64,000 nt of DNA from Trichoplax sp. H2 (lineage: Eukaryota): NCBI GenBank assembly GCA_003344405.1, contig NOWV01000181.1:74001-138000 (forward strand). Direction: 5' to 3'. A program made the position numbers and the translations under genes. Numbering within the stretch: the stretch's first letter is position 1; every line of letters starts with the position of its first letter. The notes under the pieces are model-generated. The model saw only the letters and a list, made by a program, of their open reading frames with translations. It searched no databases and was not told where the DNA came from. This document shows, one piece after another, positions 8,847 to 63,728 of this stretch.

Positions 8847-11596
8847 AATTTAATTTGTAAACTAGCTCTTATATTTTGCTATGAATTTGGTTTTCGCTTG
8901 GTTATGTTGCACCCTGTCTCTTGTTAATTAATAATTTGGGTCTTTATTTGACTTTGCTAGTAATAAATATAATTTACCTCGTAGAAAGTTAGAGTGGATT
9001 TCAGTGTTATAGCTCTCATAATAAATGAACGTATGCATGAAAATGCTATCACCATCAGAAACTAGTTGTGATTCCTTCAATTCGATAAAGAAATCAATTT
9101 GGATTATTAACATAAATATGAGAATTACAAAATCGTGAAGTATTTATAGTATATTGCATGGACTATTGGTATAGTTAAGCCTAAAATAGGCTGCAACTTT
9201 GCGTAATACAATTATAGCTGGATGTGGTACATCTGGAGTTAGGGTAAGGATAGACTTCACCTATTTATCTTTTCGTGTGCAATGTTTAATAATATGTCGT
9301 TGATCGGGACTGTAAGCTAAACATTTGACTGTTAGAACAACATTATGATTCAAGGTCAGAAAGTGAACTAATAATGCTTTCATTCATCTATCTAGCAAAT
9401 CTATCTCGTAGCATGCTACTATTATAATTAAAGATGTATTTCTAATGTGTTTGCTACTGTACTGAACTAATTCTACTTCTCAATCTTAACCATAAAATAC
9501 TTTCGCTCTTATATTTGGTAACATTAATTACCAATATTCGAAATGATGCATAGACTTCGATAAAATTGATAGCAGAATAAACCGTAATTCAATACGAGAA
9601 ATGCTTATTACTGTAATTACTTATAGTCTGAATGAAGTATTGGTGCGAGTTAATGAACTCCCAAACTTTATGTAGCCATAATCTTTCGTAAAAAACGCAT
9701 GGAGTCTTACAGATGTCAATGAAAGGCGAATTCTAAGTCTTTCTCAGACATTTTTTTAAATAAAAATTTTTAAACGCCATAGTTTAGATATTACGATACA
9801 AGTTATTTGAGTTCTAAAATGTTTCAATTGCTATTTTTACTTAAAGAGATGTTTAAAAATGACATACTAGAAACGCTGAAGACAACAATAACGACCATTA
9901 ATATCATAACTACTTATTCCATATAACTATATCTTACATGATAGCCACCAAATCCAATTCGATCCACAATAATTATCCTAAGAGATAGATAAACCGCGTA
10001 ATTGTTCACGATCTAACATTTAAAAAGTTCCTTGCCTTATAATTGGAAAATCCTGAACATTTTGAATATTACCTCAATAAATAATTGGATACATAAATCC
10101 TCTACTAATTAGTTTCAATTACCTTAAATTTAGCCGAGAAATACATAACTATTTCGCAATATCACAAGGCATTGCAGATTTTGGTAAAAGGATTATCGGG
10201 GTTCGTACTGGCTGCGACTAATTTTAGTAATTTATCGGCTTTGCTAAGATAAAATATAAAATAGCAACGTAAGCTTAGATAATTAATAAATTTATTCATA
10301 ATATTTACAATCTATTAAAAGCAACATTTGCTCGCACGTTCATATTACTATATTAAGTAAACCCTTTTAGTATTTAACTTCGTTGCTTAACATCAGCTCA
10401 CATTCTTGCGTTATTAAGCATGCTAAAAGTTAAGCGTAATTATTTCCAGAAATCACTCTGCAATGGCTATCTTCAGACAGCAAAATAGAGCGAAATAGGT
10501 GTCAATAGACTATTAGCAAACTAACCTTTCTGCAATTTATAGAAGGAATTAATCTACTGACAAAGAAAGAGAGATCTGCTACTAATAAGATATAAATTAT
10601 ACAGTGATATATCTCGATAACGTAGAGAATGGAAACTAAGGATCACGTCAGACGAGATTGCATTGGAATATTCACGCTCTGATAAATCAAGTACATCAAG
10701 TCTAGAAAAGAGTACTGTGAAATTATATTATCCGTCTAACAGATTTACTAAATACTTTAGTAAATGATGATTGGATACTTATCGGTACCAAGTAATTGTT
10801 ATACTTTATTCACATTGTATCAATTGAAGTATATCTGCATAATTAGAAATATAACGTACTTTTATTGAAATAGAAGAATAAATCATCTATTGTAGTTACA
10901 ATTAATTACATTATTATTATTATCATCCATGGACTTCTACCTGTTATTAATTAGTGAGCAAAAAGAATAGTTACAGTTTCCAATCGTGATATATAATACC
11001 GTTCTCAAAACACGTGATGTGAAAGAATCCAACTGTTGCACTGATAAGTATATTTACGGCCTAAAGTTGATAGTTTATCTAGTAGAAAAGATTCCGATAA
11101 TAACAAGTCTAGACCATTGTAATAGACCTACTGCTACTTCGTTAGGTTGGTAGTTTAACGATCTTCCGGTCGTAGACAAACTTCGATTCTTAAATAGCGT
11201 AGAAACGCCTAACTTTAAAGAATAGTTAACAAACCTTAAGTTACTAGCACATTTGGGCATAGTCTAGAAGCTGTCAGTCCCAGCTCTCAGAACGTGGTAT
11301 AAGAGTGAATACTATACCGGTACTTTACTGTTTCATTATCAGCTACGGCCACTAACATAAAATATTTTGCGCAAACCATTACAACCATAAAATGATCATT
11401 GGTCTTCGAAATCATAGAAAAACGAATAATAACGTTACACAATCCAAGGTAGTCAAGTAAGACGAAGAGTAACAGAGTATACTCGCACTGCTCTTTGAGG
11501 CTCTTTTATTGTTAGAATTAGAGATAGAAGAAATGGTGAAGATTTAAAACATGGAAAGATAATTTCATTGTTTCATTTAGTGAAAAGTCGTTGGAT

Positions 11597-12616
11597 ATGG
11601 CAAGTACAAATAAAATTGATAGCCTTACGCCTTGTGATAGCCAATCTAAGGAGAAAAAATCCATCATGGAGGACCTTAGAAACTTAATTACGACTGGTGG
11701 AAATGAACAGCAACAAAACAACTACGAACAGGCTTTAATAACCTATAACGAAGCTTTAGATCGAATTAATTTCGTAACGATGGTCGAAGACAAGGACGAG
11801 AATGAATATTATCATGGTCTTTATTTAGAAATCTATCGAGAAATGGTTAAAATTTACAAGAAACTACTTCGTTATGAAGATATCCTGTGGATTTATCAAA
11901 AAATGTTAAAAGTGCAAATTGAAGTATCCGGAGAAAAAAGTCAAGATGTAGCTAAAATCTATGAAAAGATTGCGTATGGTTATGATAGTCTCAATCAAAC
12001 CCATAAAGCTATTGCCATGTTTGAGAAACATCTACATATTAAATTAGAATTATATGGCGAAAATAGCCATGAAGCTGCTGATGCTTATTTTGATGTTGGA
12101 TTAGAGTATGAGCGCCAATCACATCATTATAAAAGTTTGTCTATGCTTAAAAAATCATTACGGATTAAAATAAACCTTCTTGGAGGGGAGCACTACGATC
12201 TTGCCAGTATCTATAGTATGATTGGCGATATATATACTGATCAAGATAAATTTAAGGAAGCAATCGCCATGTACGAAGTCTGTTTAACTCTTGAAGTACG
12301 TCAATATGGAGATAACCATCTTTGTATTTCAAATCGTTATAACTCTATTGCATGGGCTTATCAATGCCAAGACCGATACAATGATGCATTGGGCTTGTAT
12401 CAGAAATCATTAAATATAGTTGTTGAATTATTTGACGAAAATGATGATCATATCCTCGAAATCCAAGAGCAAATTGCTTTAATCTCTAAAGAACAACATC
12501 AGCAAAAAAATTCTAAATTGATACCACAAGATAATCTTCAGAGCAATGAAGATGCCGCAACAGTAAATGAAATTATAATCAAGGAAGGTGATCAATCAGT
12601 AGGTAATGCTCATTAG
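11597..12616 (+). CDS. Intronless TPR protein (~339 aa) with 42-aa kinesin-light-chain/NPHP3-type repeats
   Basis: Open frame from ATG 11597. About 5-6 repeats of the form G..H.D.A..Y..IG..Y..Q.++.EA+.MY.K.L.I. Confidence 0.9.
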   Translation: MASTNKIDSLTPCDSQSKEKKSIMEDLRNLITTGGNEQQQNNYEQALITYNEALDRINFVTMVEDKDENEYYHGLYLEIYREMVKIYKKLLRYEDILWIYQKMLKVQIEVSGEKSQDVAKIYEKIAYGYDSLNQTHKAIAMFEKHLHIKLELYGENSHEAADAYFDVGLEYERQSHHYKSLSMLKKSLRIKINLLGGEHYDLASIYSMIGDIYTDQDKFKEAIAMYEVCLTLEVRQYGDNHLCISNRYNSIAWAYQCQDRYNDALGLYQKSLNIVVELFDENDDHILEIQEQIALISKEQHQQKNSKLIPQDNLQSNEDAATVNEIIIKEGDQSVGNAH

Positions 12617-13496
12617 CCAAAAAAAATATTCATCTAGTCTTATCTTATCGATTTTATTTATACCAATTCTTAGCCGATTTAGAATTTATAAATATATATT
12701 CCTTACTATAGTTACCTGTTCTTGAAATTTCGTTATTGGTTTCGGTTCTATCTCACTTTAATTGCGGTTATCACGATATCAGAGGCGATTCTTAATGTAA
12801 ATTTAATCCAATTGAGATTAGGTATATAAATCAGTTCTGATAAAGCACCGATGATAATTATGAATTTAACATAACGCTAATTAATCATAGTTACAAAATC
12901 TATTCACTAGCTCTATTAATGGCTACGATATTTCTTGAATGAAGCACTTGAAATTGTCGTATTACAGTCAAATCAATCATTTTGACTATAAAATCATACA
13001 CATTAAACAAGAAAAAATTAGCCAATCATAAAATTGCTACATAATGTTTGGTAAGCTTTAAATTGCAGTATAATCAGCTTAATTTAAATTAGTTTTCGTT
13101 TACTACTGTCTCGCTTATGATTGGAGTAATTCCAGCTATCATGCGCTGTAATCTAATGTGAAGTCAACTTCTTATTCTAAATGGGTAGTTTCTACAGTAC
13201 AGTAGTTAATACGGTTGAAATTTCACTTGCCAGATAGCGAATGGGGCGCTGCTCATGCTTACAAAGTTTGAGAAGTTTGATTTTTAAATGAAATTGATAT
13301 CGTCAAATTTTCTGAATCATCAGCACTAATTAAACTAGTAGAATTTCAATTCTATCATTTACTTGTATTTCTACAGCCATTAGCTTGTGTATATGATAGT
13401 GAAATAAAAATTGACTAAGTGCTAGTAAAGAGATACGCGTATTCTGTATATAAAATTATCGCTGAAATACTAACAACTAAACCAAATTTGATGTAG

Positions 13497-16400
13497 TTTA
13501 TAATTTGGAAAAAGAAGAAAGTACAAATGATGGTCGTTATGAAAGCCCAGTGGCTAAAAATGTACCTTTTAATTCTTTTAAAGCTAAAATTAATCCAGCC
13601 GAAAAGCAAGCCGGTAAGATATTTCATGTCTCTAGTTTGGATCTACCAGTGTTCCAAGGTAATACTGACCGAATTATCAATATAGTTTGCAGTGCCATGA
13701 TGTAGGTTATTACATTATTATTTTTCCTAGTATTAGAGAAAATTTGCATAACCTATATTCATATTCCTAATAGGGAAAAATATTCTTACAAGATCGAGTC
13801 ATTTATTACCTGAAGATGATCATAGTATGAATGACAACCGATTACAAAAGGCGACTAGCTTACAGGATAACGTACCAAATCCTAATAAGCAACCAAATAA
13901 ATTAAAGAAAGTTAATATTATCAATTCAAGGATTTATATTGTTGACGAGTTACAGGAAAAAATATCGAAAGGAGGCCTGAATCGCTCCGAAGAGAATGAG
14001 AGCAACTCTAGCTTACCAACTAGTAAATCGGATTCCGAAATTAGCACTAAAATTTTAATACCCGAAAGTAATTATGACACTCCAGGGCAAAATAAGTCTA
14101 TTAGCGTAATAGATCCCAAGTACGATAATTCAGTATTTGATAGCATTGTTAAAACTGAATTCAAAGACTTGGAGAAATCTGAAACTAAGCTGTTTTTACC
14201 TGAGAACAGACCCTATCCGCCGATCAGACAGCCTCGCCGTAAGATGAACAGTCATCCAGCAAGTACTAATTTAACTACTAATACAATAAACCTATCTAGT
14301 CACAGCGATGATAGGCATTCAATAGCTGTAAATTTCAGTGAAGAAAGGAGTCAATCATGCATTGAAGAACTACAAAATGATAGTAATCAGTCTATGAAAA
14401 AATCATCAAGCTGTCCAAACACAAGTATGAATAAGAGTCCTACTAGTCAGAAGAAATCCAAATTTAAACCAGACGATTTTTGGCTTAGTAGAAACCTCGC
14501 TACATCGAATGAAGATAGCGTAGCAAAGTCTAGGAATAATACTATGAATAAGTCTCCAACGGAGAATAAATTTAATAATAGATTAAATCTAGAGCAGCAA
14601 AATAATTATCAAAATGTCAACACATACAATCAATCAAATCTTAAACCTAGCCAAATTCGTGGAAAGGCCTCACAGCAGAGTGACCCTGAAAGTTCTTCTC
14701 ATGATAACATTCAGCAATTAAATGGGAAAAACACATTGTCTAATAGCCAAAGTAATCGATCTCCCAGTAAAACATGGCAAGCTAGCAAGAGTAATCAGAT
14801 CATCGAAACTACAAGCAAAAATGACTGGAGCCATCCATTACAAAAGGAAATTACTAATCCATCATCTACTAAGAAGAAAGTCGTTAGTACTCAGTCTAAG
14901 CTAGATAACCGATCTTTAATAAGCAACCCATCGAACGAAGAGAAGTCCGTTTCGATTGAATTACCTGTTCTAGACTACACTAAGTATTCTCAGGAAATCA
15001 AATCCAAGCGGAATAATAGCTCTGGACGCCAACATGATAGCAATACTTTGATGAAGCACAAATTCCAAGCATCTTCAACAAATAATGACACGTTTGATAA
15101 GAATAGACATCAGCAGAAAAATAATGTGAAATTTAGAAAGGGTTCGACATCAAGCAGTACTGAATTTCCAGATGAAGGTATTATTTGGCAGAAAAATACG
15201 AACAAGATTTCGTCAGAAAAGAAAGCGCAATGTGCTAGTCCTGAATCTCCTAATGAAGTTCAATCCAAACATAAAATAAAGCTAACGTCAGGCATTAAAT
15301 CTAATGAAACAGACTTTAAAGTTCAAGTAGAAAGCAACCAACAGCAACAAGATTATAAATCATTCAATTCTGTAAATAGGTGTAAATCAAATAGCTCATC
15401 ATTTCAGAACGATGGCGGACCAATTCCTAAAAGTAATACAGGAATCTTGTCTACCGACTTAAAGCAAAAAGATAGTGCTAAACCAACCTCAGCGAACCAC
15501 TCGAAATTAATTAATTCTAGAATAGGAAATGATGGTAAACCTATAATTAAAAGTAAACCTAAATTGGGTCCTGGCGCCAATTCAGTAATGCGAAATAAAG
15601 GTAGCAGTTTATTTCCTAAAGATTCTTTCAAATCAACTCATACTGAGCCTAGCCAAAGCAACGAGAGGCCAACTGAAAATAATTCCAAATCTTCAGTGAA
15701 TAATGATGGTCATGATTCATGGCCCCGAAATACGTACCTATCCAGATCAAGGAGTTCTGATGTTGTCCACCTAGATAAATATTCGTCTGATGATATAATC
15801 AAGCTTACTTCTAGTTCTCCCCAGCAGAAACTAAATTTTTATATAAGCGAATCAGAAGCGAACCTTTCCGTGACGGGAGATGTTTGTAAATTGGATGATA
15901 AATCGGAGACTTCACCACAGGACGACGTTAATATCGTAATAAATCAAAGTAAAAATCGCAGAATGCATCATACTATTCAGATTACGAAAAAATACTCAAA
16001 GCAAGAACAACTTGATCAAGTGAGTAAGGTAAATTCAGATGTACCTAAAGGAATTAAAATACAAGATAATTTTTGCGACCCTTCGACTCTGGTATCAACC
16101 GTTGCAGCGAATAAAAGTCGCGACCAAAACCGTAAAGAACTTACGCGTATGCCAGAAAATCAGCTAAGAGAAAGACAAAATATGGGAAACGAAATTCCAG
16201 CCCATCAATTCAAGCAAGTGAATTTACAAGAAAATAAGAATGCACAACAATCCAAGGCTCAATTTGGCAGCAATCAGGACCATTCTCAGCAAAATCAACT
16301 ACCAAATCAATTCAATGATAAAGAATCTTTAGGCTGGCAAAATACGAACCATAACTATACTCCTGAATACCGGTCTGTTGAAATGCAACAGTTTGACATA

Positions 16401-19400
16401 CAGCATGCTCAAAATTCTAAAACGATGTCTCATAAAGCCTCTATTACTGGCAAGAAAGGAAGTGCATATTCTAATTCCCAAGTTCGCTCATTCAGTGCTA
16501 AAAATAATTACCATGGACAAAATAACAATAATGGGGATCAAGCCGAATTTCTAGTTAGTAGGCAATTAAATCAATCGAAATTAGAAGGTCAGTATAACTA
16601 TTATAAAATGATAGTAGCATTTCCTACAAAATACAACAGCAATATACTGATTGTAATGATCATGTTCTAGACACTAAGGATAAGCCCGTAATTAAAAAGA
16701 GCATCAGTGTCCAGAATGAGCATAGCGGAAAATCAGGTAATAATTCATCTAAAGCTCAACAAGATGTTACTGGGCAAGAAAAGAATATTAATAATGACAT
16801 CAATCGTTCGCGTAATATTTTGATAACTGACACAGATACACAAATAGTAGCATATAGGCCAGAATTACCACAAAAAATGCAAGTAATAGCATCATCTCCA
16901 GGTAAGTCTTTAGGTAATCAAGAGTGAGATACGTCGTAACTTAAAATCATTGCCAATTTCATTTCAGTAATCTATCCATACATTTATCTCTATCGAAGTA
17001 GGAGATTCGGCTGTTTCAGCCCAAATAGTGTAATTTCTATAATTAATCTAATTTATTTATGTACTTTTCTCTTTGTAGTGTTATGTTTTCATATCAGATT
17101 TACACGGACTATTTAGCAAAACTTATAAACTAATCTTATCACTTCTATAGAATTGATTTAACTGTACAATCTGAAGATTTTAAGTATACGGTAGCTAATT
17201 ATAACTATTGCTAAAATATCTCACATGTTAATATTTCATTAGATCACGATGAGTATCCTGAGCTATCGGCTACATTCGAATCAGTACCTAATAAAGTCTT
17301 CTATTTCGAAAGCAGTAAAATTTCTGGCCTACGAATTACATTTCCAGCTCAGGAAAGATCTAATAAAATCCGAACTCGCATGGTTATTCATTATGCTGAT
17401 CCTCCATATTCCAATGAATTAAAGGATCAGTCGATCATTCAGTTATCTTCAATCATTAAATTAGATAGCTATGATGCCAATCGTGGTTATAAACCTTCCA
17501 TACTCTTACGATTACCAATTCCTTTGGCAACAAGAATTCTTGAAATATATAAAATTGACTCTGTGCAAGCATTACCGGTGAAGGTTTTATATCGTATTAG
17601 CGAGTATTTTCCTACGTGGGAAAAGCTAAATATAGACTACCAGTATTGCTTTGAGAATCAAGGTGGTCACTGCATAACAATTCCAATTTATCGTACTGGA
17701 TATTACGTTCTTGGATACCAATATCAATCAGATAGTTTCAATTCAAACTCATATCATAGTCTATATTATGTCTTTCCAAGTCTACAACAAGAAGTTAACG
17801 TCTTAGCAGTTCTTTCTGCTATTCAATCACAGTCTGATCATGTTCATTTAAAATTTTTTGTGATCCGTAAGGGAGAAAACTCACAAAGTATAATTGACAA
17901 AATAGCACCACCCTACCGGGAGACTTTATTACAACATACTGGACTTGAGTATGCCATTCTAAGCAATGGCAGATATAAAATGAATTTCTTACCAAAAGAT
18001 ATTACCTGCGAAGATAGATTTCAAGATAAAAACATAACCGTAAATTGGAGCCTTCGCCATTATATTTGTATCGATATTCAATGTCAGGTTATTAATCGTG
18101 ACAAATTGAATAATTTGTGTGTAATAAAGTTAGAAAGATTGGATGAGAGTCATGACATTCTGGAATGTTATCTAACTATGGTTAGTAAAATGAAGGCTTT
18201 CCTGTAATCTTAAAGATACATTTACACAGATTTTACTTGTCGCAAATCTTGAGCTGATTCCAATCTTCCCTCAATGCAATTTTAATGAGCTCTGCCACCT
18301 TTCTTTTTCAGCCTAAGCTTTCAGATCATCGCTCTAAAAAGTTGTCTAGAACTAGACGAAAACGACTACAACAGTCAATACTAGTACAAAGTAAGTACCA
18401 GTACCTTAATTAGTAATTATTGGATAGGTAATCTGTATCAGGTAGTGCAATAGCCGAAAAAGGCGTGGTATGTTGATGCTATAAGTCATATATAGTCATA
18501 TTCTAGTAGAATTAAGAGTAAATTAAACTGTCAGTTGAATACGATGACTGACTACCGTACTCTTTCTTGATTTCAGATTTCTTAGATAATTCAGTAAAGC
18601 TTATCAAAACTGTAAAATTTATTGTAAACTGCTGCATTAATCGAAATACAAAGATATCTTAATATCTTCGGTGAAGATATTAAACTACTGCTTTATTTAT
18701 TTATGCTACTTGTAGAAATCGCTGAAAATTTAACAGACACTTCTGAAGATGAATTTGGTGAGTGTATCATTTTAAGTCAGATCTTAAATCTAAAGCTACG
18801 TAATTTAAATCTTATTGAAACATCGCTTCTGAAATATCAATTATACTGGTGACCTGACACTACTCTTAAAAATTTATGATAAAACACTTCTCAAGATTAA
18901 ATCATTGCTTATATTAGCGATAATTATTCTATCTTTAATAGCTAAATACTCGAATATAATATGTTAGAGAAACTCATGATATCCGTGATATAATAAGGGG
19001 AAAAATAGAATAATTATAGTAGCGACTTGACACCGCTCTTCAAAATTTACTAAATAATTCTCAATATTAAATTACTGTTTATTTATAGCGTTAAATTTTC
19101 TAACATTAAAATAATTGTTCGAATACATAATTTTTAAAAAGATATCGTATCATAGCAAGGGAAAATTGAAGCTACTATAGTGGCGAATTAGCGTCACTCT
19201 TCCAGACTTGCTTTAATAGTTCTAACGATTAAATTATCTTTACAGATGAAGATAATTATTTCTATCTTCGATAAAACATTCTCAAATGCACAATTTAAAA
19301 GAAGCATTATATTAAAATAAGTGCCTATAAGGACTATATTGCAAAACATGTGGTACAAGATTTATCATACATTAAAAGACATTCTATTGCGTCTACCAGA

Positions 19401-19982
19401 TCACTTTTACTTTAGGACAAGTGACAATAAATATAATCGATATTAAGATAAAATTTTTATTCTAGCAGTAAATTAAAAGCAGATTTGGATATTAGCCAGA
19501 TCTTTTAAACTGACTCCTGATTTAGCTGTAATATAATAAACCATATCATGGTTATAATTTATCCATGTTAATTTGAAGTTAAAAATTTATTGGCTTCGAA
19601 TTCAATTCATATCGAAAATGTAATTGTATATAATGTCTATTTTTCTCTGCTCTTAATAGCTCATAGGAAATTAGAAATGAGCTTGGACATCATTCGAGTC
19701 ATAAATAAGCATTTGAAAATTATTTTGGAATCCATTCCATTGCTTGAATTAATATATGATCTAAGAATAGATCGTGTACTTAGCGATGATAATGTCGTCT
19801 ATTTGAAAGAAATTCGAGGCCAGAAAGAGAGAAATTATGCCTTTATTTTACTTTTGCAGCAACGGCAAGATCGCGATTTTTACAAATTTTGCAAATTATT
19901 GCAAGAACATCAGGTTAAATCCCTTAATAAACTAGGCATGCTATTAGAAGCAGAAGCCCGAAACAGAGACACTATCGATTAA
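13497..19982 (+). CDS. Multi-exon ~1500-aa protein: long S/N/Q/K-rich disordered region, ZU5/UPA-like module, C-terminal CARD
   Basis: Phase-consistent GT-AG exons 13497-13613, 13774-16587, 16671-16901, 17243-18180, 18312-18390, 18716-18757, 19660-19982. Exon 4 has ZU5-like SGLRITFP...LSSIIKLD...ILLRLPIP...WEKL. The last exon is CARD-like (IINKHLKIILESI..L..DL...VLSDDNV.YL.....KERN..FILLLQQR..RDFYKFCKLLQE). The start codon is not identified and probably lies upstream. Confidence 0.75.
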
Positions 19983-20530
19983 ACCCTCTCAAACTGTACA
20001 AATGGAATGCTTTAACAAAAAAATATAATCAGCTGCCTTTGTAAGTAAAAGCGTATTGCTCAATTCAAAAAATTGTAATAATTTTAAAGTAAATGATCCT
20101 TCCTGGTGCAACAGTATCTGTTGGAGTTCTATGATATCATAAACTTTAACAAATTGATTTTATGCTACAATTACTCATCCAAAGAATGATACTGCGATAT
20201 AATAACATTTAACCGTTTTATAAGAATTCGCTGATTTAAATAGAGGATAAAAAGGGCAACGTTGTGTAACTACAAATCAAAACGTGAATTGTATTTTTAT
20301 AGCAAATCACTATATCTATGTGCATGTTGATAGCGACTATCGGTTGCTGATATCAGAAATGGCTTAATGTAAGTAAATTGTATTTAATTGTGTTATGTTA
20401 GCACTTTATTATTAATTAATAGGCATATAAATATTAGCCAAGTGCCAAGATTGATAAATTATACTTAACTATTTTTGTAAAGATATACGAAATGATAGCT
20501 TGCTTTTATGCTCTGTGAATCTTCAATTAA

Positions 20531-20890
20531 GATTTAGAAAAGATTCTTCCCCATGGTATATAATTTGCAACCAACAACAATTTCAAATTTCTATTAAAAT
20601 TAAAATCATTTACTGCAGAATGATATAAAATAACTTAGTTTGAGCAGGTAAAGATCGAACAGGAAGTAGTTGATAAGTACTAATTTCGAATCGGATTAAA
20701 TGTCTGCATCTTAGCTTAGTTAATATTTATTTCAATTTTTGTTATAGTTTAAATACAGAAAATTGCAGACACTCTTTTAGAAGCATACTTCGATATCTGG
20801 CCAAAAGTTTACGATAAATTAACTAGGAAAATATTGGATCAAAACATATTTTCTAGTATTTCTAGCTTAAAGCTCAAGAAGCGATAATTT
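20531..20890 (+). pseudogene. Possible decayed two-exon CARD remnant
   Basis: Broken frames MVYNLQPTTISNF (ending at donor gagcag/gtaaag) and, after acceptor ttatag, KIADTLLEA / ILR / PKVYDKL resemble CARD helices. Many stops and frameshifts. Confidence 0.3.
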
Positions 20891-21519
20891 AATCCATAGA
20901 GTCTATAGCTCACAATCTAATCAAATTAAACCTTTGAGGTATGGAATATTTGCACGATTGCATATTTCCTGTTCCTTTACAAATGCAAAAGCAAATCAAT
21001 AGATTAATCATGGCAGAATCCACATTTCTGCATCATGCAGCCTTTATGTACAGTTTTCCTGTAGACTGCTATAAAAAGTGATAGCAGTACTTACTGCGCG
21101 ATGATTATTAGTTATCGTCGGTAGTATGAGTAAAGAAAGATATTGAAAGTTAGCTTATAGTGCAATCTGACAGTAAAGGAAATATGAATGTTATTATCCA
21201 CTGAAAGATTTGCTTGAACAGCAGCTGTAAGATAAGCGATCACTTGATAGGAGAATACTGTAAGCATATATGCATTTATTGCATGTATGATTGACAAACG
21301 TAATTAAACAAGCAAATTATGCGCGAATATTAGCCTAACTGGATGACAAAGTAAAGGAAATATTCTATTAAAATAAAAAATTTTACCATTCATCTCTAGT
21401 TAGTGGATAATGATCTATTCAGCTCAAAAAGGTGAGTGATCGAAGATAAGACTTAATACGCCAGGATTAAGCTGCTTATCATTCATTCTAACTAATCCTG
21501 CTTCCAGTCAACGCTATAC

Positions 21520-22050
21520 TATACAGAAAAGTAAATTCAGTTTATGACAATGTACCATATAGACTGCTATTGCCTACTCAAGTCTATGCAAATATAGTCT
21601 AAGTCAGTGAGAGTTATTATTGATGTATGGTAAAGCAAAATAGTGTATCAATTGCTTAATCTTTTTTAACTGCATACCAGAAAGGAAGCTGTTGTGGCCT
21701 GAAATTAATTTTAATTTAATGACATTTCAAGTAGACTATAAGAGGGTATGAAACAGATCTAAGCTTTTGGGAGGGATAGTATCAGTTGACTAAATATGAG
21801 TTAATTGAGAAAAAATTTAGCTTTGCTGAAGTTCAGCTAAAGAATCCAAGTGTTGCATTGTAGAATTTGCAGAATGACATAAATAGCCTTACTTACAATA
21901 TATCGGCTATATATTAGCTACTCAAGTCTACGCAAATATAGACCAAGTATTGAAGAGTTTTCATTAAGGTGCGTCAAAGCAAGATTTCGTACTAAAAACC
22001 TAACCTTTTCCAACTGCATACAGAAAAGGAGGCTGTTGTAGACTTGCATT
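21520..22050. repeat. Diverged direct tandem duplication, period ~344 bp
   Basis: ctactcaagtctatgcaaatatagtctaagt (~21574) vs ctactcaagtctacgcaaatatagaccaagt (~21918). aactgcatac(c)agaaa(a)gga.gctgttgt occurs in both copies. Confidence 0.75.
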
Positions 22051-23575
22051 GATTTTCACCTACTGTTTACTTTTAGTCACCTGGCATTATCAAATATCAA
22101 TCGAAGACTTTAATTCATTTAACCGAACAACCGAGATCTTATAGAAGACAAGATTATCTCGTTAAAGCCATGGGATTGCATTATCATAACAATTAATTGA
22201 AGTAATCATGACTATATGAGCAAGTATCGTACGTTGATGATAAGTATAAGGAAAAAGCTTTTCTATTATGTCCATGGACGATACTTAATAATATTTGTAT
22301 AGGCCTAATGTGATTGCTTCATGGCTAATTATAATTATGAGACGAGGGAAAGGAATTGTGGTCATTAAGGTTCACTGTTAGAAAGGAAATCAATTGTGAT
22401 TCAAAATGACGATAATCAATAACTGCTAATACTGACAAGCCGCTTCATTCCAATTTTTCAAACAACATCTGAACTCTATTTGTGCAGTTGCGAGTATCTA
22501 GTCGATAAACTTGAGTCCAGTTTTTCCGACTTGAACTCAGTAACAAATTTGAAGGTGAGTAAATAATAATTAATTTCATTACAGATTGAATCAAGGTCGA
22601 TTCTTCTTTACTGAACTCATTAACTAAGCATGGTAGTTATTGGCTATATGCAAGAGCTTTATGATCAATATAGAAAATGCACTATTACGTCAATGACTAA
22701 AATTTTAACTCAGTAATTGACTAAATTTTCTAATCGTATATACCATACGGTATGTCTGTCATCAAGTTCGAATTAGTAAGTTACGTCTGAGTGACATGCA
22801 TTAAATTCAATCTAATATGCTAGAAATTGGGTAAGTTAGTGGTTGTTTGAGCATTCTTTACCCTGTAGTCTATAATTTTAAAAGTGAATTTTTTGGTCTT
22901 CCATTATTAGTATTCATGCTTCATATTTTACTTAATTGCCTGCACTGCAATCACACTAATACTCATAATTATGTTCAGAAGCAGTAATGTGTTAATTTTT
23001 ATGATTAATAAAGTATCAGGAAGAACTGATCAATTCTTATCAGAAGAATTATAATTTGCACGATAGGTAGAAGATGTAAAGTTTCACCTTAGCTTAACAA
23101 TTAGATTATTCTAACAACTTTGAAATATTTCCAATTTCTACCGTATCATATCTTCAACAGTTACTTTATTAGCAAGGTGAATATTTACCGGTATGGTAAC
23201 CTGCAGTGTTTTCTACAATTACCAACTATAAGACGTTAATGACAAATAATAAAGTTGTCAAATCAGGCAGCTAGCCGTCAGCCTTATATTCACCTTCTGT
23301 TCTGTCTCATGGAAGGTTGTCGAGTGGCACATTCTATTTCCTTCACAGTCATCCATCCTAGATTAATTCTTTATAGCTAACGGCAACAGGCTAATCAAGC
23401 TATTTCAGTGGAAGTTATAATACATACCTTGACACATTTAACTAAGTGAGATTTTATTAGATATGTAAGAGATATTTTATTACACGCAAAACTTGACTTT
23501 ATTTTACTTTGTTTTGCTAACTTTAAATCTTATTGCATTATTTCTTCAAAGACTTCAATACTCCAGTAATTGCAA

Positions 23576-25906
23576 ATGGATATAATTGGTAAGTGAAATT
23601 AAATTACACTAAAATGAATCAGTAAATTTCCATCATAATAAGCGATAGTTGAGTAACAAATTTATAAATTAAAATAAATTAAACCTGCTATCATAAATCT
23701 TATATGGTCTATACTATGTAATCATTACTGGTGTAGATGTGTTTATTAGTTTTAACAGCACAAAGTATGATCAAGCAGAGTGTATAAAAGAGATTTTAGA
23801 AAATAGATTTCCAAACTTAAAAATAAGAATGCACGAAAATCAAGTGCTTTCCGGAGATAATTTGACCCTAGAAAAGGATTATAACATCTGTTCCGCCAAG
23901 GTACTTTTAACAATGATTGATTAGAAAACTTGCATTAATGATAAAGGTCTGTTAAGATTTCCAATTAACCCTAAAAAGATAACCAAACAGAAGAAAACAT
24001 AGGTTGATCAGGCTATCTTTTATCATTCTTATCCATATTTCTATAGCAGTGATATTGAATAACGAATAATGGTTCGAGGTATCGGTGATTCATAAGACTA
24101 TTTTCTATACTTGATGCTTGTAGATATTCATATGTTGTTTAAGTCAAGATTATGCAGACTCAGTATGCTGCTGTAAGGAACTGGAGCGGGCATTTGAACT
24201 GGCTAAGCCGATTATACCAGTTTTATTGGAAAATTTCGATATCGAAAACGGACTAACCAATAATCTGACAAGGCAAAACTTATTCCCATATATCTGTGGC
24301 AGAAGATCTTTCAACCTAATTTATAATCAAGGTTTCAATAGCTATTCCCTATCTGAAAATATGCTGCATCTTCTAGATTCATTAAAATCATGGGTAAGAA
24401 TTACGTAATTTACTAGCCCAATATCAGGTTAAAAGTTCTTGAAAATTAATTTAGGATATATATCATATAAATAATAATAGAAATGGATATACCATGATTT
24501 ATGATATATTCAATATGAGTTTATTCATATAATATTCAATGTCGTGAGTTTATTCGCATTACCTAGAAGAAATGTTTAAGAAGGCCAAGTTTATAATCTA
24601 GGTTGTAGGAAGTAATGACAGAATTTCAGCCATGAACCAACATTCAAGCGCTTCTATCCACGACTCGGGCAATGGTAAATATTGTTTGTGTAAATGAATG
24701 AAAAGATATTTTTCCAAAGTAAAAATATTTCGATTTATTGTAGGATTAATAAGCGTAGGAATGAGCTTATAGTTTGTGCGATCTGGAATGATACAAAAAT
24801 TTAACTTAATTATTTGATGGATAACTTTTGTTACTAGTAAATCACATCCAATAAAGTGATTGACGCCTATGTTATGATCGATGATATGAATACGTAAAAA
24901 TATAATTATTTCAGCTTTTCATGAGCAAAGTAAATCTTCTAGGATTATTACTAAAAGCAAATACCGTAGATATAATTGTAAACAATTTCATTAAATTGAT
25001 ACAGCTTCACAAGAGATCACAGCATTCTAGCATAAACGTACTTTTGGCTCTTAGTATATCAACAATGACATTTATATATTTATGTTTTTGCTGTTTAAAT
25101 ATAATGAACTCAAATGCGTCATCTCAAATACAAACTTAGCAACATTTGTTTATTTTCTAATTTCACTTGATCAGACAGTCTGATAGTTTCTTATATATTA
25201 TTTATCCTCAGCTAAAATAGAAAATTTTAGCTACGGTTTCTGACCAGCAAAATAAGTGCTTATAAAAAATATTTTTGAAATTGTTGTGATTTATCAAATT
25301 TATGAGCTTTAGCTAGTAACTTATTACTAGGTGCGATTTCATAATTTTAATATCATTTGTATTAGCTGCAACAGTGGAAGTACAGCAAAGCTGCGAGATG
25401 GATCCAAGGGCTGATCAAGGTTTGACGAACATACTTTTCTGCAATGACTACGCTGCATGCAGATTAGGCGTAATGTTTTTATATTAATCGCAAATAAGCT
25501 AATGAAAATCTAGATAAGATATAAACTGTTAAAGCAATTATATACCATGACAACGTATAATAATGTTCGTTATAAAATAGTAGAATTACATCAGTTCATC
25601 AAAATAATGCAGAATTATGCAAGCGATAGAATTTCATGATTTAGGTGGATTGGATACTTTTTAATAAATGCGTTTGTCATATATGCTAATGCTATGTGGC
25701 GAGGGTTATTTGAAGTTATTTTTAGCTAAAACCAGTTTAATTATAGTACAATCCTTTTCAAGGCGTCTTTAAATAAAATTCGTTTAATATCATTGATATT
25801 CATATAATTTCAAAAATTCTTTTTTATGTATTTAGCCGCCAACCCGGTCTCCAAGTTATGGTCCAGCCTACTAGACAAAATTAGTCAATTTTTGCCGGGA
25901 TATTAG
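23576..25906 (+). CDS. Small stand-alone TIR-domain (TIR_2-like) protein, spliced
   Basis: Phase-consistent exons 23576-23588, 23737-23900, 24124-24393, 24602-24674 give MDIIDVFISFNSTKYDQAECIKEILENRFPNLKIRMHENQVLSGDNL...AKIFICCLSQDYADSVCCCKELERAFELAKPIIPVLLE. Probable further exons start at 24915 and 25366, and a final exon 25836-25906 reads ANPVSKLWSSLLDKISQFLPGY*. The 3' exons are less certain. Confidence 0.85.
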
Positions 25907-27607
25907 GTTGAACCTAACTCAAGAAAATCGGCCTTGCAATATGTATCAAACTTTAGCAACAGCTTAGCTTGTAATACTTGATTTTAATCACTGGTCACTT
26001 GATGCTTATTAATTCACAATTAGCAGTACTTGCCAGTACACTAAAAAACTATTATTACAATTTGTTACCCTGCTTTAGTCGCAATTTGATAAAATATCGC
26101 AAACAAGATCTGATAGTTTTATCTATCATATTTACAGTAATGATCATATATTCACCTTCAATGACTAGAAGATTATGTACAACGCATCCATTTTGATCAT
26201 ATTCTATACAATAAAATGGAAATTCCCAATAGTTTTATTCTTCAAAAATTAAAGCTATTCAAGTATTTTACCGATTGTAACAACTATGCTGATACCCTTT
26301 TGACTATTGAAGATTTAATTTATTTCTATGTGAACATCTTTCATAAAGTACCAGTATCAACGAAATAAATCACCCCAAGCAAGATGTTTTAATAAATATG
26401 GATCAATAGTTTACATACATATATTTCTAAACTTGTTGATGATAGATAGAAGCGAGTAAAAATTGCTATAAAATCTAGACAAACTATTAGGATAATCATC
26501 AAGCATAAGTAATGAGTTACTCTATGCAATAGAACGCTAATCGAACAGTCAAAAGCTTCAAATATTATTTTAAGAAACTTTAAGTGTAACTATATTTGGG
26601 CTGTGTAGTAAAATTGCACGAAATAGAAGTAAAAGAAATCCAATCCCATTACCAGCAGAATTATAGAGGTATTATCTTGAAGCGAAGTTGGTATAACGAT
26701 GTCATGCTGCGGTAGTGTTTGAAATGTTCAATTTGATTAGATAAAAGTACGAAAATGTTAATTCCGAAAATGTGATTGTAAATAAATACAAGACCCTCAT
26801 TGAAAAACTATAATATCATTGCTAGTAAATTTTCCATCTAAATGAATGGTAATTAACTAATGCACTAAAATGATGGTATACTCTTAATGCAAGAAAATTG
26901 AATTACCTTGGTGGTACTGATATGGTTACATAGCGTTATATTTCTACAACAGCTTTGATTCGCGATTTTAGCTGTCTAAAAATTGATATATCGCGCGTTA
27001 AATTATTCATTGTTGCCATGCTACTACGCTTATGGCTAATGATGAGAAAATTTTATACTTTCTAAATTAGCTGTTGCCATGCTGCATACAATAAACGGCA
27101 TCCATTAAACATTATAGTTTATGTGCAACACATGCATATATGCACACTTCTTAGCGTAGGGTAGCAGCAAGTATCACTTGTAATGCCATTAAGATGTTAT
27201 GTAACAAGCTAGTAACTACCGTAGAACAAATCCTATCACTGCTGCACTAATAGTCTAACTGACTATGACCTGAAACTGTTAATTAAAAATGTTTAAATAG
27301 TTTAGTGCTAATACTTTTCAAAGTTACCTCTTTTTGCGAAATACTGGTGGTGAATATAATACACATTAGTGCATAGTAGTGATTATAGTATTTATCACCA
27401 AGAAACAATTTAGAGTGCAGCTTCCCTCAACGAGGTCTTAAATTTCAACTATATAATTATATAAAATACACTAATCTAATGATTTTTAATTTTACGCAAA
27501 TTTTATTTTCATTCTAAGTTTTGCGCAAGTTTTGACTACGCCGTTATTATTTCATTATAAGAATCGTATTGAATCTTTGATTTGAAATTTTTCATTTTCT
27601 AAATAAG

Positions 27608-30077
27608 ATTCGAATGAGGGCAGACCCTAACTCAGGATACGCTTCGTACTTAAAGTGTACACAGGTAAGGTATCCTGTAGTGTAGAAACAGGCCTTGGTT
27701 CGAGAGTCGTGAAGGATTTAACTCGGGACTTGAAGGAGAGAAATTTTCATTTTTACATGGATAACTTCTTCACGAGTACCGAGTTATTTCTGGAGCGACC
27801 ATCTAAGGGGGTATATTGCTGCGGAACTGCCAGGCAAAACCGTAAAGGTTGGCCTCGAGAATTGCGTGGTAATAGAATCGTGAAGAAGCGAGGTGATAGT
27901 AAAAGTTTACAGTGCGGTACACTAGCAGCCTCAATTTGGTATGATAATAAACAAGTTCGTTCCTTGTTTATTACATGCACGAATCCATAAGCGTCAACGA
28001 TAAAACTTAAACGCAAATCTGGTGATTCAATTGAGGTCGCTAGTCCATCAGTTGTACCTCATTATGTAAAGTTTATGGGAGGTGTGGGATAGGACTGATC
28101 AACTCAGAGCTGCCTATCCTACCAGGAGAAAGTCCAGAAAGTGATGGAAGTACCTTTTCTGGTTTTTATTAGATCAATCGATTGTAAATACATTCGTCTG
28201 CTTGTTGCAATCTGCTGATCACTGAAGGACAACGAGATCAGGGAAACACCGAAGGCGAGGACCGAAGCAGTTTCGAACGAAACTAGTGAAGCTACTAATT
28301 TCGACTTTCCTAGGGAGTCGAAAGCGTCTTTTTGATTCAAATAGGTTTGAAGACAATGATATACACTTGGTAGTGCCATCGAAGAAACCTCGTAGATGTC
28401 ATTGCGGCGCGAAGAAGTTCAAATAAAGAAAGCAAACAAAATTGGAATGCGACTCGTGCAAGGTAAACTAGGATGAACTCTTCAACGTAACATAACATAT
28501 ATATAAGCGATTAATAAATCGTCATCTATTTATCTCTTCATCAAATTAGATTGGCTTGTGTGCTGAATGCTTCAAGCCATACCATGAAGAACTGAAGAGG
28601 ATGCGAATGACTTTAGCTAAAGGCTGTAGCCACTGGGATAGTACTAGTTTAATTTAATTTGTGTTAATTGATAATGCCCAGCTACCAAGCTCCTGTTATT
28701 GCGTTGCTTAGGTTTTAGGTTATATAAATTTTAGCTGGTACTGTTTTTAGTTATAAATTGTGTATATTCAAGTTTCGTTATTGTTTTGAAATTTCTGGCG
28801 ACAGCCACTGTGCTTCTGTAGTAATTAACGATGAATGTAGCTTATATAGTTTCCCTAGATAATGCTATTTAAAAATTTACGCTCGCATTGCCTTTTGTGT
28901 TAGTAGCTAATATGCTCCTGATAGAAATTATATACGATTGCCTTTGAGCCAGCTTCAGCTGCTTCCTCATTCCTTGTTATAATTCAGATGTAATAAATTT
29001 AAATCTTTACGTATTTCTAACTTGCAGTATGATTGTGATATTTGGGGGATATGCTTAAAAGCGCTGCAGAATAACATAAGCTTAGCTTTATTGATACGAA
29101 ACTAACTATGCATCGTTTCAAACCTAATCAATCTCTAGGTTTAAACATTATCAATAGATCAGTTTATTACATTGCAAGTATTATAACATGAAGCTCTTGG
29201 TCTCTACATGAGTGACAAGTACAGCAAAGTGAAGGAATGAGACTAAGTAAACCTGAACAAAAGTTTTGTGTCCATTACGATTTTTTAAATAATATTGAAG
29301 ATTTCAATAAGCTAAAATGATCTTAACATTTCTTCTATTACTTCGCTTTATGCTCGTTGTAGCTTAAAATGTTTCCTGAATCAAGAGTAACATATTTTCT
29401 TGAATCATAGGCTTGTATTTTAATTTTTGATTCGATAGTTACTAACCCTGCATAAATATTAGCTTTGTTCGTTCGATAGATTGTTTATTTAAAACTAGTT
29501 AGTGTAACCTCCCAGGGAATTGTTTTTCTATACGAGAAGACCTAACGTGTTGCTCACGTATATCTATGTAGTTTCTAAACTTCTTGAAATAATTGTTAGT
29601 GAGGATCCTGAAAGGATCCCTACTCTCGCAAGTACACTACTTGTAAACTTTTCTATAAGTTCTATAGGGTAGTCCATAGCAATTCCTACTAACGTATAAT
29701 AATATTGCTAATTTATTCAACAATAAGGGCGATATGTTACCGTCGCCAGTGCATTATCAAACATAACTTATAGTCAAAACTTAATTATGATTTCTTCCAA
29801 TTTGAACTTTTAATACTTATTGGTTAAGGTACCCAAAAAAATTTACGACTGTGCTCTCCTCTACGAATGGAACTTTATTGCTGAACTAATTTCCAACTAA
29901 AAACGATTACATCAAATGAAATTTTACAGAAATAGTATAGATACCTTACCAATAGCTCTCTACTTTTTGAATGGCGTAATCTTCACCGAGCAAATGGCTT
30001 ATAAGGACATTGTTTAAACGTAAGAGATATATGATAAAGTCAATCCATTAGAGCGGCTGCACGAAATAAAGGGTTAA
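27608..30077 (+). mobile_element. 5'-truncated, inactivated piggyBac-superfamily DNA transposon with right terminus
   Basis: Transposase motifs ADPNSGY, KVYTGK, MDNFFTS, GTARQNRKG, WYDNKQV, FMGGV/DRTDQL, RRKSRK*WKYLFWFLLD and a Cys-rich tail (coding remnant 27608-28657, several stops and frameshifts). Terminus ...gcacgaaataaaGGG at 30073 followed by TTAA at 30074-30077. No matching left TIR seen. Confidence 0.9.
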
Positions 30078-32253
30078 TTACTAAATATTCATTCTAAACT
30101 TTTATAGGAAAATGAATACGATAATTAAGAACTGATACCTCTATTTACATACGTTACTTTACGTAGGCTACTAGAAAGCTGAATTATTTGAAACTTGCAT
30201 TTTCTAAACTTAAAAAGCTGCCGTGTAAATTGATTCGATGTTTGCCTGTAGGATGATCAAATGGAGTATCAATACGAGAACGAGCTCATTTATAAGTTTT
30301 ATTTGAATTAAACTTGTCGACTAGACTGGTCGAATTTGCTTTACGATGCACAATTCTATCATTGAAACCAGCAAATCTACCGATAAATAATCCCTAGTTT
30401 ACACTCAAGGACATAAATTTGTGGTAGTCAGCTTGAAATGCCCCCAATATATAAATTTATTAATCGATATTTAGTTGCTTTATCAAAGGAAAATATGTTA
30501 TTTTAGTAGAAACCTTCTCGCGACATGAATTAAATACCGCTAATCCAATGATGAAGAAGAAGGTATTAATGCATAGAAGTTATTTAGTGTGACCGTGCGC
30601 CAGCAAAACACTGGAAAGATATATAAAGGGTCACGGCCCAAACACATAGAGAGTTTTTTACAGTTGATCTAGTTAGTGATCTGAGCTGATAAATAATAAA
30701 GTAACTCTAAACGCTATCGAATAGTCTCTCACTGAGATTAAGAAAGTTAGTCTTAGTCTGTACTATTCATCAAGAGTTAGTTTGAAGAATAGTCGGTGAC
30801 AGTAAGTAGGTTAGTAGTTGCTAGCCTTGATAGTACAAGTGTCGCAGAGGAGATTTGTGACACATGGTTACATTAGCCAAGAAAGCAGTAAACGCCTGGC
30901 TAGAATATTGGAACAAGAAGCGAAAACTTTTGTGAATCTGGGTAGGTATCAAGATATTTTCACAAGTACAGTAAGTGTAAATTTACAAGATTAGGGGCTA
31001 CATGAAGAAATTAGGAAATATGTTGGAGATAAATATTACAAATTCCGCTAATTTGCCTCCCTGAAAGTATTTTAAAATTAAAAAGAAATAAAGTACGTCA
31101 ATAGTCATGCTAAATTCACTATTATTTTACTATAGACCACAAAAGATGGGTAAATAGATAATAAAATGAGAAAATTGGATCAAGATAGCAGGAATACTTT
31201 GAGTAGCCCTTTTATGGCCGCAAAATATATATACTGCCCTGATTTTTGCTTTAGTTAAGAACTATGGGTTTGACATATTTATACTTCATAATCTTAACGT
31301 AAAGTATACTTAACTAGATGTAACCGATCTCTAAATATCAATAGAGCTTGAAGGCAAATTTATATGCTCATATGCTTGTAGTAAATTATAATTTCCTATC
31401 TTTCCATTGCAACGAATTTTTAATCGAAAATTTGTAGCATTACTCACGCAGGAATATTTTACATAAAATATTTTAGTTTTAACTAATATCGAAACATCAT
31501 AACTACATTTGATAGAGTAAATTTTATATAAACATTTTAATTAAAAAGTGATCTAAAGATTAGAATACTGCCGAAATCAGCACGTTACTTGGAATTTACG
31601 CTATTGAAGGTACTGGAGGTTTTTCAATTAATTATTTATTATAAAATGGAACTGTTGCTAATATATAATCAAAGAAAATTCCACAAGAGTTGTTAGAGAT
31701 CATTAAAAAGAACTGATTAGTTATCCGACGAAGAATTTTATCATCCATTGCAAAATGAAAGTTGCGCTTTAGGTTGCAACTAAACTATAAAAAATTATTA
31801 GAACATTTTTTTAATTCATATTATTTCTTGTATAGAGCTAAACTTTATAAGAATAAAGTGGCATCTAGCAGATTTATTCAAAATTGATGTACTATTTTGA
31901 TTATTAACGTAAAGTAACACTATAATTATTTTATCCGCTCCATTAGTGATATGTCGGATTTTTGCCTAGCTTTTTATCTTGATTGATACGAATATACTTC
32001 TTCATCGATGGAGTTATATATTCTAAAATATTTCATTGGAAGTGATGCCAATCGGTAATCCTGCAGTGTGCCGTCTTAAAATATCTGCCATCTATAAATA
32101 CTTTATTGAGCATGCAGAATACGTCATTTTGTCGTTACCTAATTCAGCAAGAGTATTTTTAATACATATTACTATCAACTTTTGCTGAAATCATTACAAC
32201 TTAGTATATAAGCGATTGCATAGCAGCTATCAATATTTTGGTAATTTAGTAAA

Positions 32254-32303
32254 TTAGTTGGACAGTTAGTTAGTAGGTTAGTTAGTTAGTTGGTTAGTTA
32301 GTT
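32254..32303. repeat. Imperfect (TTAG)n microsatellite
   Basis: ttagttggacagttagttagtaggttagttagttagttggttagttagttg. Confidence 0.8.
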
Positions 32304-32720
32304 GAATAATCAATTGGTTGCTTGTTCATAAAGTGAGAGGACACTTTTGTAAGGATTTCAGAAATTAAGATTTGTAAGCTTGAAACTAGCTGATGAAGTA
32401 TTTTTTAGAGAATTGATCGGCGAACTATAGCTGAGGAAGTAATTTATCGACACAGTAGAAAATTTTAAAGTAAGAAGAATGAGATTTTTTCGATTTTGTT
32501 GTCACGAAACAGCTTTGCAACAAGATAACGTAATGTATGATTTATAAGTCAGTTCCTTGAACCACGTATCAAGCAACGATATCACCACTGTCATGAATAC
32601 TTTACTCAACTAGCAAACTATACAAAGACTTAGACGCCTCATATTTTACGTTAAACACTTAGTTTAAGAATTAACTTTATTACCCGATTTACTGCAATTA
32701 TACACTCTTCCTCAAGAGTT

Positions 32721-32740
32721 NNNNNNNNNNNNNNNNNNNN
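32721..32740. other. Assembly gap (20 N)
   Basis: Run of n characters. Confidence 1.
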
Positions 32741-33269
32741 AAGCAAGATGTTTTAATAAATATGGATCAATAGTTTACATACATATATTTCTAAACTTGT
32801 TGATGATAGATAGAAGCGAGTAAAAATTGCTATAAAATCTAGACAAACTATTAGGATAATCATCAAGCATAAGTAATGAGTTACTCTATGCAATAGAACG
32901 CTAATCGAACAGTCAAAAGCTTCAAATATTATTTTAAGAAACTTTAAGTGTAACTATATTTGGGCTGTGTAGTAAAATTGCACGAAATAGAAGTAATAGA
33001 AATCCAATCCCATTACCAGCAGAATTATAGAGGTATTATCTTGAAGCGAAGTTGGTATAACGATGTCATGCTGATAACGTAATGTATGATTTATAAGTCA
33101 GTTCCTTGAACCACGTATCAAGCAACGATATCACCACTATCATGAATACTTTACTCAACTAGCAAACTATACAAAGACTTAGACGCCTCGTATTTTACGT
33201 TAAACACTTAGTTTAAGAATTAACTTTATTACCCGATTTACTGCAATTATACACTCTTCCTCAAGAGTT
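32741..33269 (+). repeat. Near-identical copy of 26377-26709 fused directly to a copy of 32525-32720 (probable alternative haplotype)
   Basis: 32741-33073 matches 26377-26709 (one difference seen: agtaaaag vs agtaatag). 33074-33269 matches 32525-32720 (two differences seen). Confidence 0.92.

Positions 33270-63112: not shown

Positions 63113-63144
<32 letters not shown>

Positions 63145-63693: not shown

Positions 63694-63728
<35 letters not shown>

Follow-up and report, generated by a model that had tools for sequence, protein, structure and literature searches.

We examined a gene predicted to encode a protein with a TIR domain in a 64,000-nucleotide stretch of the Trichoplax sp. H2 genome (GenBank assembly GCA_003344405.1, contig NOWV01000181.1, positions 74,001 to 138,000 of the forward strand). 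We refer to this whole stretch as the window, and all coordinates are positions within it. The gene lies at 23576-25906 on the + strand, its product appears to be a TIR-only protein that may cleave NAD+, and it is preceded on the same strand by a large gene that ends in a CARD-like exon. The TIR gene is TrispH2_009718 of the public annotation (RDD38350.1, a hypothetical protein of 118 aa), and the translation of its exon 3 is 100% identical to residues 25-114 of that protein. The counterpart in T. adhaerens (TRIADDRAFT_61590, XP_002117531.1, UniRef B3SBE8) is 144 aa long and is named 'TIR domain-containing protein'. An exhaustive HMMER search of 1.84 billion representatives with exon 3 returned 27 matches at E ≤ 1e-3 and only one cluster below 1e-10, the two members of which are RDD38350.1 and XP_002117531.1. 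Among these representatives, exon 3 was present only in the 118- and 144-aa models.

We found no literature that names the gene as TRIADDRAFT_61590, TrispH2_009718, B3SBE8 or XP_002117531. The available text of Kamm et al. 2019 (PMC6321704) describes 16 TIR-domain proteins in Trichoplax sp. H2, some of them TIR-only. TrispH2_009718 is probably one of the 16, given its precomputed match to PF13676; two supplement files of that paper do not contain its name. The paper uses the N-terminally truncated model of the protein, and the text available contains no occurrence of 'sarm' and no mention of NADase.

Exon structure of the TIR gene

The TIR domain is contained in three exons.

23576..23588, + strand: exon 1 (proposed), 13 nt, made up of ATG and 10 further nt (M-D-I-I and the first base of Asp), with donor G/GTAAGT; in neither public model
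23737..23900, + strand: exon 2, encoding box 1 (DVFISF), helix A, strand B, the BB-loop (...VLSGDN...) and helix B; acceptor ...tgtag/AT
24124..24393, + strand: exon 3, encoding strand C (IFICCLS), helix C with the Glu, strand D (PIIPVLL) and the remainder of the TIR; acceptor ...ttgtag/AT, donor TGG/GTAAGA

The exon 2 donor (AAG/GTAC at 23900/23901) is used by both public models, which also agree on the junction between exons 2 and 3. Exon 3 translates as IFICCLSQDYADSVCCCKELERA..., in which helix C reads ...SVCCCKELERA and the Glu codon, GAA, is at 24178-24180. Box 1 spans the junction of exons 1 and 2 and continues over 23737-23753, with its Ser codon at 23748-23750. When joined, exons 1-3 encode 149 residues with no stop and the BB-loop Gly is present. 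The sequence and its splice context confirmed the exon coordinates, the box-1 motif DVFISF and the glutamate codon at 24178-24180, all of which had been given in the initial annotation of this region.

The public models of H2 and T. adhaerens both begin at an internal Met at 23829 and therefore lack box 1 and helix A. Several observations suggest that the true start lies further upstream. Box 1 and helix A of the nearest homologues have their counterpart in the reading frame upstream of Met 23829, where FISF... falls on their D[VI]F[IL]SY. Using a hidden Markov model (HMM) built from nine homologues, from which the TIR gene itself was left out, we obtained a score of 85.6 bits for the product of exons 1-3 (HMM positions 6-140) compared with 74.8 bits from the public start (positions 40-142), so that the addition of exon 1 and box 1 is worth about 11 bits. 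The small full-length homologues start 6-8 residues before box 1, which is similar to the N-terminus proposed here. Because of this alignment, the rise in score and the similar N-termini of the homologues, we favour a product whose first exon has 13 nt and begins with the start codon at 23576, and whose complete TIR_2-type domain is encoded by exons 1-3. The start codon for box 1 depends on the candidate splice 23588^23737. A corrected gene model is of practical use, in that surveys based on the public proteins, which lack the first strand and the Ser, would misjudge this TIR.

Exon 3 was the only one of four exon translations to match Pfam, hitting TIR_2 (PF13676) with E 8e-6 and 26.8 bits, slightly under the gathering cut-off of 28 bits; exon 2 alone had no Pfam match. 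Both public models, which combine part of exon 2 with exon 3, were above the cut-off (38.0 bits, E 2.7e-9, and 36.1 bits), so the Pfam check proposed with the initial annotation came out in favour of a TIR domain. An AlphaFold2 model of the truncated 144-aa public protein had a low mean pLDDT of 52.2; its helices and strands follow one another as in a TIR from helix B to helix E. A Foldseek search with this truncated model found nothing below E 0.2; the highest of its weak matches were to nucleoside deoxyribosyltransferase/DNPH1, Cat1 and two plant TIRs, and we draw no inference from the model or the search.

Downstream of exon 3 the following candidate features compete.

24394..24408, + strand: alternative end in which the exon 3 donor is unused and V-R-I-T is followed by a stop at 24406-24408; this is the H2 public model
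24602..24674, + strand: exon 4 of the initial annotation (speculative), 73 nt, shifting the frame by +1, open, with AG/GT borders; in neither public model
25366..25419, + strand: exon 5, with the same borders in the T. adhaerens public model, where it is in another frame since exon 4 is skipped
25836..25906, + strand: exon 6, with a stop at 25904-25906 in the frame of the initial annotation and at 25872-25874 in the T. adhaerens-type frame

The six-exon model of the initial annotation is open throughout, encodes 214 aa up to the stop at 25904-25906, and has canonical GT/AG borders at every junction. In the T. adhaerens model, exon 3 is joined to 25366-25419 and then to the exon beginning at 25836, ending at 25872-25874. 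Exon 4 has no Pfam match. The intron that holds it contains 26 stop-free AG...GT candidates of length 3n+1, of which exon 4 is one, and exon 4 is not singled out because all 26 would restore the frame. The T. adhaerens model differs from the window by an A/V and a T/I replacement, which place nucleotide changes, inferred from the residues, at 25394 and 25843. Both sites are at codon position 3 in the six-exon frame and at position 2 in the frame that skips exon 4. This pattern slightly favours the six-exon frame, but weakly, as it comes from two sites and would arise about 1 time in 9 by chance. The tail that follows exons 1-3 is short and its structure is uncertain.

Transcripts, the upstream gene and stand-alone status

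Upstream of the TIR gene and in the same orientation is a second gene.

11472..20617, + strand: TrispH2_009717, encoding 1876 aa, 100% identical to the public protein and covered by spliced contigs of two runs, X17 and X18

Its exons are at 11472-12598, 13493-13612, 13773-16585, 16669-16899, 17241-18179, 18311-18390, 18716-18756 and 19659-20562/20617, with all introns of the GT..AG type. The predicted protein has N-terminal TPR_12 repeats, a 972-codon exon of low complexity rich in Ser, Asn and Gln, and a CARD-like last exon. A region of 312 aa (17242-18177) matches no Pfam family. The match of the last coding exon (19659-19979) to CARD covers profile positions 3-81 of 85 with E 0.0078, which is below the cut-off. 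To our knowledge, the combination of TPR repeats with a CARD-like end has no earlier description.

We compared the window with contigs from four low-share runs (X17-X20), none of which is recorded as RNA; statements about contigs refer to the contigs listed for these runs. Contigs of X17 and X18 contain seven GT..AG joints in TrispH2_009717 and are thus taken to be spliced RNA. X19 and X20 have no intron-type joints, one odd X20 record apart, and cover intergenic pieces as well. That X20 record touches 18867-18884 and 23108-23126, separated in it by 12 further letters, and has a loose end at either side; as the fit extends over only about 18 letters per side, a chance match in low-complexity sequence is the most likely explanation, not a deletion of 4.2 kb.

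The sole RNA-type contig over the 5' part of the TIR gene comes from X17 (23549-24067, 519 nt). It starts 27 nt before the ATG at 23576 and crosses intron 1, exon 2 and 167 nt of intron 2 unspliced. This shows that the TIR locus is transcribed and leaves the splicing of exon 1 without support. No X17 or X18 contig covers exon 3 or the proposed exon 4, and TIR exons are nowhere joined to one another in a contig; we read neither gap as evidence for or against the model. Like exon 1, exons 4-6 of the initial annotation have no supporting transcript among these contigs. The variants listed in the X17 contig (23595 and 23657) are both in intron 1. The single exonic variant listed from another run, 24153 T>C (X19), falls in a Tyr codon and is synonymous by codon count. 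The residues of the TIR shared by the two Trichoplax public models are identical (114/114). This identity and the intronic or synonymous position of the listed variants fit purifying selection, although the numbers are small.

X17 contigs leave the window sequence at two places, at 25238 in the intron between exons 4 and 5 (contig 24924-25238) and at 20222 in the 3' untranslated region (UTR) of TrispH2_009717. Each loose end runs on for at least 255 letters, which have no match anywhere in the 64-kb window with up to 3 mismatches allowed. A repeat, a structural difference or a chimeric contig could account for these ends.

TrispH2_009717 stops at 19980-19982, inside its last exon. Contigs of the two spliced runs continue to 20562 and 20617, covering that exon for about 580-635 nt past the stop with no further joint. 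The public protein ends at the same stop and the annotation keeps TrispH2_009717 and TrispH2_009718 as two genes. No contig joins TrispH2_009717 to the TIR exons, and the longer receptor transcript that the initial annotation had named as a way to overturn its reading was not found. Among 114 open reading frames (ORFs) of at least 30 aa on the + strand between 20029 and 37682, we found no further signalling domain; exon 3 (TIR_2) and a remnant of a PiggyBac-type transposase were the only matches above noise, and two of the ORFs had weak matches far below the cut-off (zf-C6H2, CoiA_N, YmgL). Neither SAM or ARM nor LRR or Ig domains were matched in the four exon translations or in these 114 flanking ORFs. 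No death-fold domain is present in the TIR polypeptide; the only death-fold-like exon (19659-19979) belongs to TrispH2_009717. No transmembrane segment was predicted, the maximum of Kyte-Doolittle hydropathy over 19 residues being 0.98 in all three gene models.

Because the upstream stop lies inside a covered exon, no contig links the two genes, the flanking ORFs carry no domains and no transmembrane segment is predicted, we read the TIR gene as a separate gene. Its product as a soluble, single-domain, cytosolic TIR-only protein is supported. The description in the initial annotation of a stand-alone TIR with no death domain, LRR, SAM or transmembrane segment thus agrees with the end of the upstream gene at 19980-19982, the 114 ORFs and the hydropathy maximum.

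Catalytic-type residues, relatives and possible function

A family profile made from the TIR protein and its nearest homologues was searched against PDB chains. The top matches were Cat1 (E 1.1e-11), the C. elegans 'NAD(+) hydrolase tir-1' (3.6e-9) and Roq1 (7.6e-9), and the 12 best solved matches were chains of Cat1, TIR-1, Roq1, L6, AT1G72930, PdTIR-type proteins and AbTIR. Further down were the first TLR (1.1e-4), the TIR of human SARM1 (3.2e-3) and MyD88 (0.038). The helix-C Glu is found in at least 90% of the rows of the 10-row family alignment. Its column pairs with E86 of Roq1 (counted from the alignment), which is the catalytic Glu of that protein, and with the Glu of HKE in the TIR-1 chain; the catalytic Glu of TIR-1 is E788, a number that is not mapped onto the aligned chain. 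In the portion of the published work at hand, the box-1 Ser (S567 of SARM1, S26 of SNC1) lies 2.6-2.7 Å from the Glu and is needed for NADase activity. This Ser is present in the TIR gene and aligns with the S of DVFISY/DVFLSF.

The TIR gene thus has the box-1 Ser and the catalytic-type Glu in common with SARM1 and TIR-1, the latter being the second-best solved match of the family profile. It differs from SARM1 in having no ARM or SAM domains and no SARM1-type insertion before the Glu (...NCedwvHKE). Cat1, a bacterial CRISPR-associated TIR (PDB 9mud), was the best solved match of the family profile and also of exon 3 alone, for which it was the only one (E 0.85). Cat1 and the TIR gene share the motif S..C..ELE.A, a similarity at the level of the TIR_2 family only; unlike the TIR gene product, Cat1 is bacterial, is 263 aa long, has a further domain and carries a Trp four residues before the Glu (position -4). 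The PADLOC models of bacterial defence TIRs (ThsB and others) gave no family for the 144-aa model or for exon 2 at E ≤ 0.01. One full-length homologue (P0018) weakly matched the PADLOC models PDC-S66, Aga_TIR and ThsB.

The nearest named relatives are 40-46% identical over about 38 residues, which form the core of strand C, helix C and strand D. They are lophotrochozoan proteins from Dimorphilus gyrociliatus (CAD5126228.1 and CAD5114025.1), Tubulanus, Mizuhopecten, Mytilus, Mercenaria and Ylistrum, and share the signature FICC[IV][ST]..Y..S..C.KE with the TIR gene. In contrast to the TIR-only product, these are multi-domain proteins of 500-1600 aa and the similarity fades outside about 40 residues. 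A Death domain and two TIR_2 domains were confirmed in the two Dimorphilus (annelid) proteins; the nemertean and bivalve relatives are large uncharacterised proteins.

Our tentative reading is that the gene encodes a TIR whose cleavage of NAD+ depends on self-association and whose product is probably cADPR. According to this proposal, the TIR-only protein would be inactive as a monomer, like other non-TLR animal TIRs that have the Glu. Association with itself or with another TIR protein would switch on cleavage of NAD+, and the outcome would most likely be release of cADPR or ADPR as a signal and not exhaustion of the cellular NAD+ pool. The idea of an enzyme here is no longer unusual because the available text of Hurieva et al. 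2026 (bioRxiv 10.64898/2026.04.20.719644) reports cADPR from animal TIR-only proteins. According to that text, most non-TLR animal TIRs retain the Glu, and the tested animal TIRs, TIR-only proteins included, make cADPR in a Glu-dependent manner and mostly without NAD+ depletion. Like those proteins, the TIR gene product falls outside the TLR/IL-1R clades, has no other domain and keeps the helix-C Glu. The main text of that preprint names no placozoan (0 occurrences of Trichoplax or placozoa).

Several observations weigh against this reading or against the gene model behind it. The three 3' models, those of H2, T. adhaerens and the initial annotation, are incompatible with each other. The sole RNA-type contig over the 5' part is unspliced, and in this RNA box 1 and the start codon are therefore not encoded together. 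Outside Trichoplax there is no relative above about 46% identity among the 27 matches at E ≤ 1e-3, and in a further search only 1 of 13 candidates passed. Relative to the nearest homologues, seven residues are inserted in the loop after box 1, which also lacks their Trp. A Trp at -4 has a functional role in catalytic TIRs and is present in all three proteins represented in five alignments (Cat1 W-C-W-D-E, TIR-1 W-V-H-K-E, Roq1 W-C-L-E-E). At this position the TIR gene has Cys (C-C-C-K-E) and the nearest homologues have M, N or Y. The initial annotation had stressed that the protein keeps the NADase-type Glu. This is borne out by the alignment with Roq1 E86 and with the HKE Glu of TIR-1, but the residue does not discriminate, as over 70% of all TIRs conserve it; TLR2, IL-1R9 and IL-1R10 carry it with no detectable activity, as stated in the available text of Hurieva et al. 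2026 (bioRxiv 10.64898/2026.04.20.719644). By itself the catalytic-type Glu does not single out the TIR gene, which is in this respect a fairly ordinary case of a known protein type. Taken with these points, NAD+-cleaving activity of the gene product is plausible while falling somewhat short of probable, and the case for it is built on residues that most TIRs share. If active, the protein would represent a TIR enzyme of very small size from an animal that is among the simplest, and would fit the recent claim that NAD+ processing is the ancestral function of animal TIRs.

It is also possible, if rather doubtful, that the protein is a non-enzymatic adaptor or regulator that docks on other Trichoplax TIRs, such as the TIR-CARD 'MyD88-like' proteins, and bridges or dampens their assembly, with the Glu serving a structural purpose. 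A Glu at this position is the default for TIR domains, and the missing Trp at -4 and the divergent loop after box 1 would be in keeping with such a role, as would the scaffolding-type Death and TIR_2 architectures of the nearest relatives in annelids, a nemertean and bivalves. TIR-only and ecTIR-DC proteins are proposed as possible alternative adaptors in the available text of Kamm et al. 2019 (PMC6321704). An adaptor is harder to reconcile with the family profile, which places NAD(+) hydrolase, plant and bacterial TIRs above the TIR domains of TLRs and MyD88, and with the retention of both the box-1 Ser and the Glu. Moreover, production of cADPR was seen on testing in many non-TLR TIRs of animals that had earlier been taken for adaptors, as reported in the text at hand of Hurieva et al. 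2026.

We consider it unlikely that the TIR gene is a decaying or barely used lineage-specific copy, in which the TIR exons are open and the locus yields no productive mRNA. Such a relic would fit the single unspliced 519-nt contig, which is the only RNA-type evidence at the gene start, the disagreement of the public annotations at both ends, and the failure to find an ortholog outside Trichoplax. It would also fit the two inferred T. adhaerens differences in the 125 nt of exons 5 and 6, a rate close to that of intergenic sequence, where we counted about 9 substitutions and 2 indels in roughly 640 nt (21998-22634). However, each of the six proposed exons has an open frame and canonical GT/AG borders, the 114 TIR residues are unchanged between the two models, the listed variants are intronic or synonymous, and both differences in exons 5 and 6 fall at third positions of the six-exon frame. 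Contigs drop rare forms, and missing spliced contigs therefore prove nothing.

That the TIR exons instead end a longer multi-domain receptor, for example by read-through with the TPR...CARD-like gene or through downstream exons, is most improbable: a gene with a CARD-like last exon does lie 3.6 kb upstream on the same strand, and TIR+CARD proteins are described in the H2 genome in the available text of Kamm et al. 2019 (PMC6321704), but the stop of that gene is in a covered exon, no contig joins the two, neither loose end (20222, 25238) has a match in the window, the annotation splits 009717 from 009718, 20029-37682 holds no domain ORF apart from the transposase remnant, and exon 3 occurs only in the 118- and 144-aa models.

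Returning to the proposed self-association-dependent enzyme, the proximity of the two genes raises the thought of a placozoan immune module in which TrispH2_009717 would act as sensor or scaffold and the clustered TrispH2_009718 TIR would make a cADPR-type signal. We regard this as a long shot. If true, it would be a sensor-plus-TIR arrangement like that of bacterial defence operons in an animal in which canonical TLRs, cGAS and STING were not found, according to the available text of Kamm et al. 2019 (PMC6321704).

Other features of the window

Downstream of the TIR gene and outside it lies the transposase remnant.

27631..27990, + strand: remnant of a PiggyBac-type transposase (DDE_Tnp_1_7, E 2.4e-18, profile positions 185-277 of 349)

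This fragment is 1.7 kb downstream of the TIR gene and looks like a truncated relic. A repeat scan of 20000-30000 found one pair of 154 nt only (21568/21912) and none within the TIR gene.

At 37882-40599 (+ strand) an ORF of 905 codons consists of TPR_12 repeats over nearly its whole length (14 stretches, E 1.2e-108), with no NB-ARC or death-fold domain seen in the ORF. It has an internal Met followed by G-S-G-S-S, which we take to be a possible N-myristoylation start. Two near-identical ORFs of about 90-109 codons (ATLVFWTACYSWDSILS...) are found on the - strand at 62998-63327 and 63639-63917, about 640 nt apart, and each runs into TA/TC microsatellite; the pair looks like a local duplicated repeat element. 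The remaining neighbours are ordinary, with a CCDC81-type gene at 50718-54001 (+ strand; HU-CCDC81_euk_2, E 4e-28) and a single-exon GNAT acetyltransferase gene at 58517-59371 (+ strand; Acetyltransf_18 and Acetyltransf_1).

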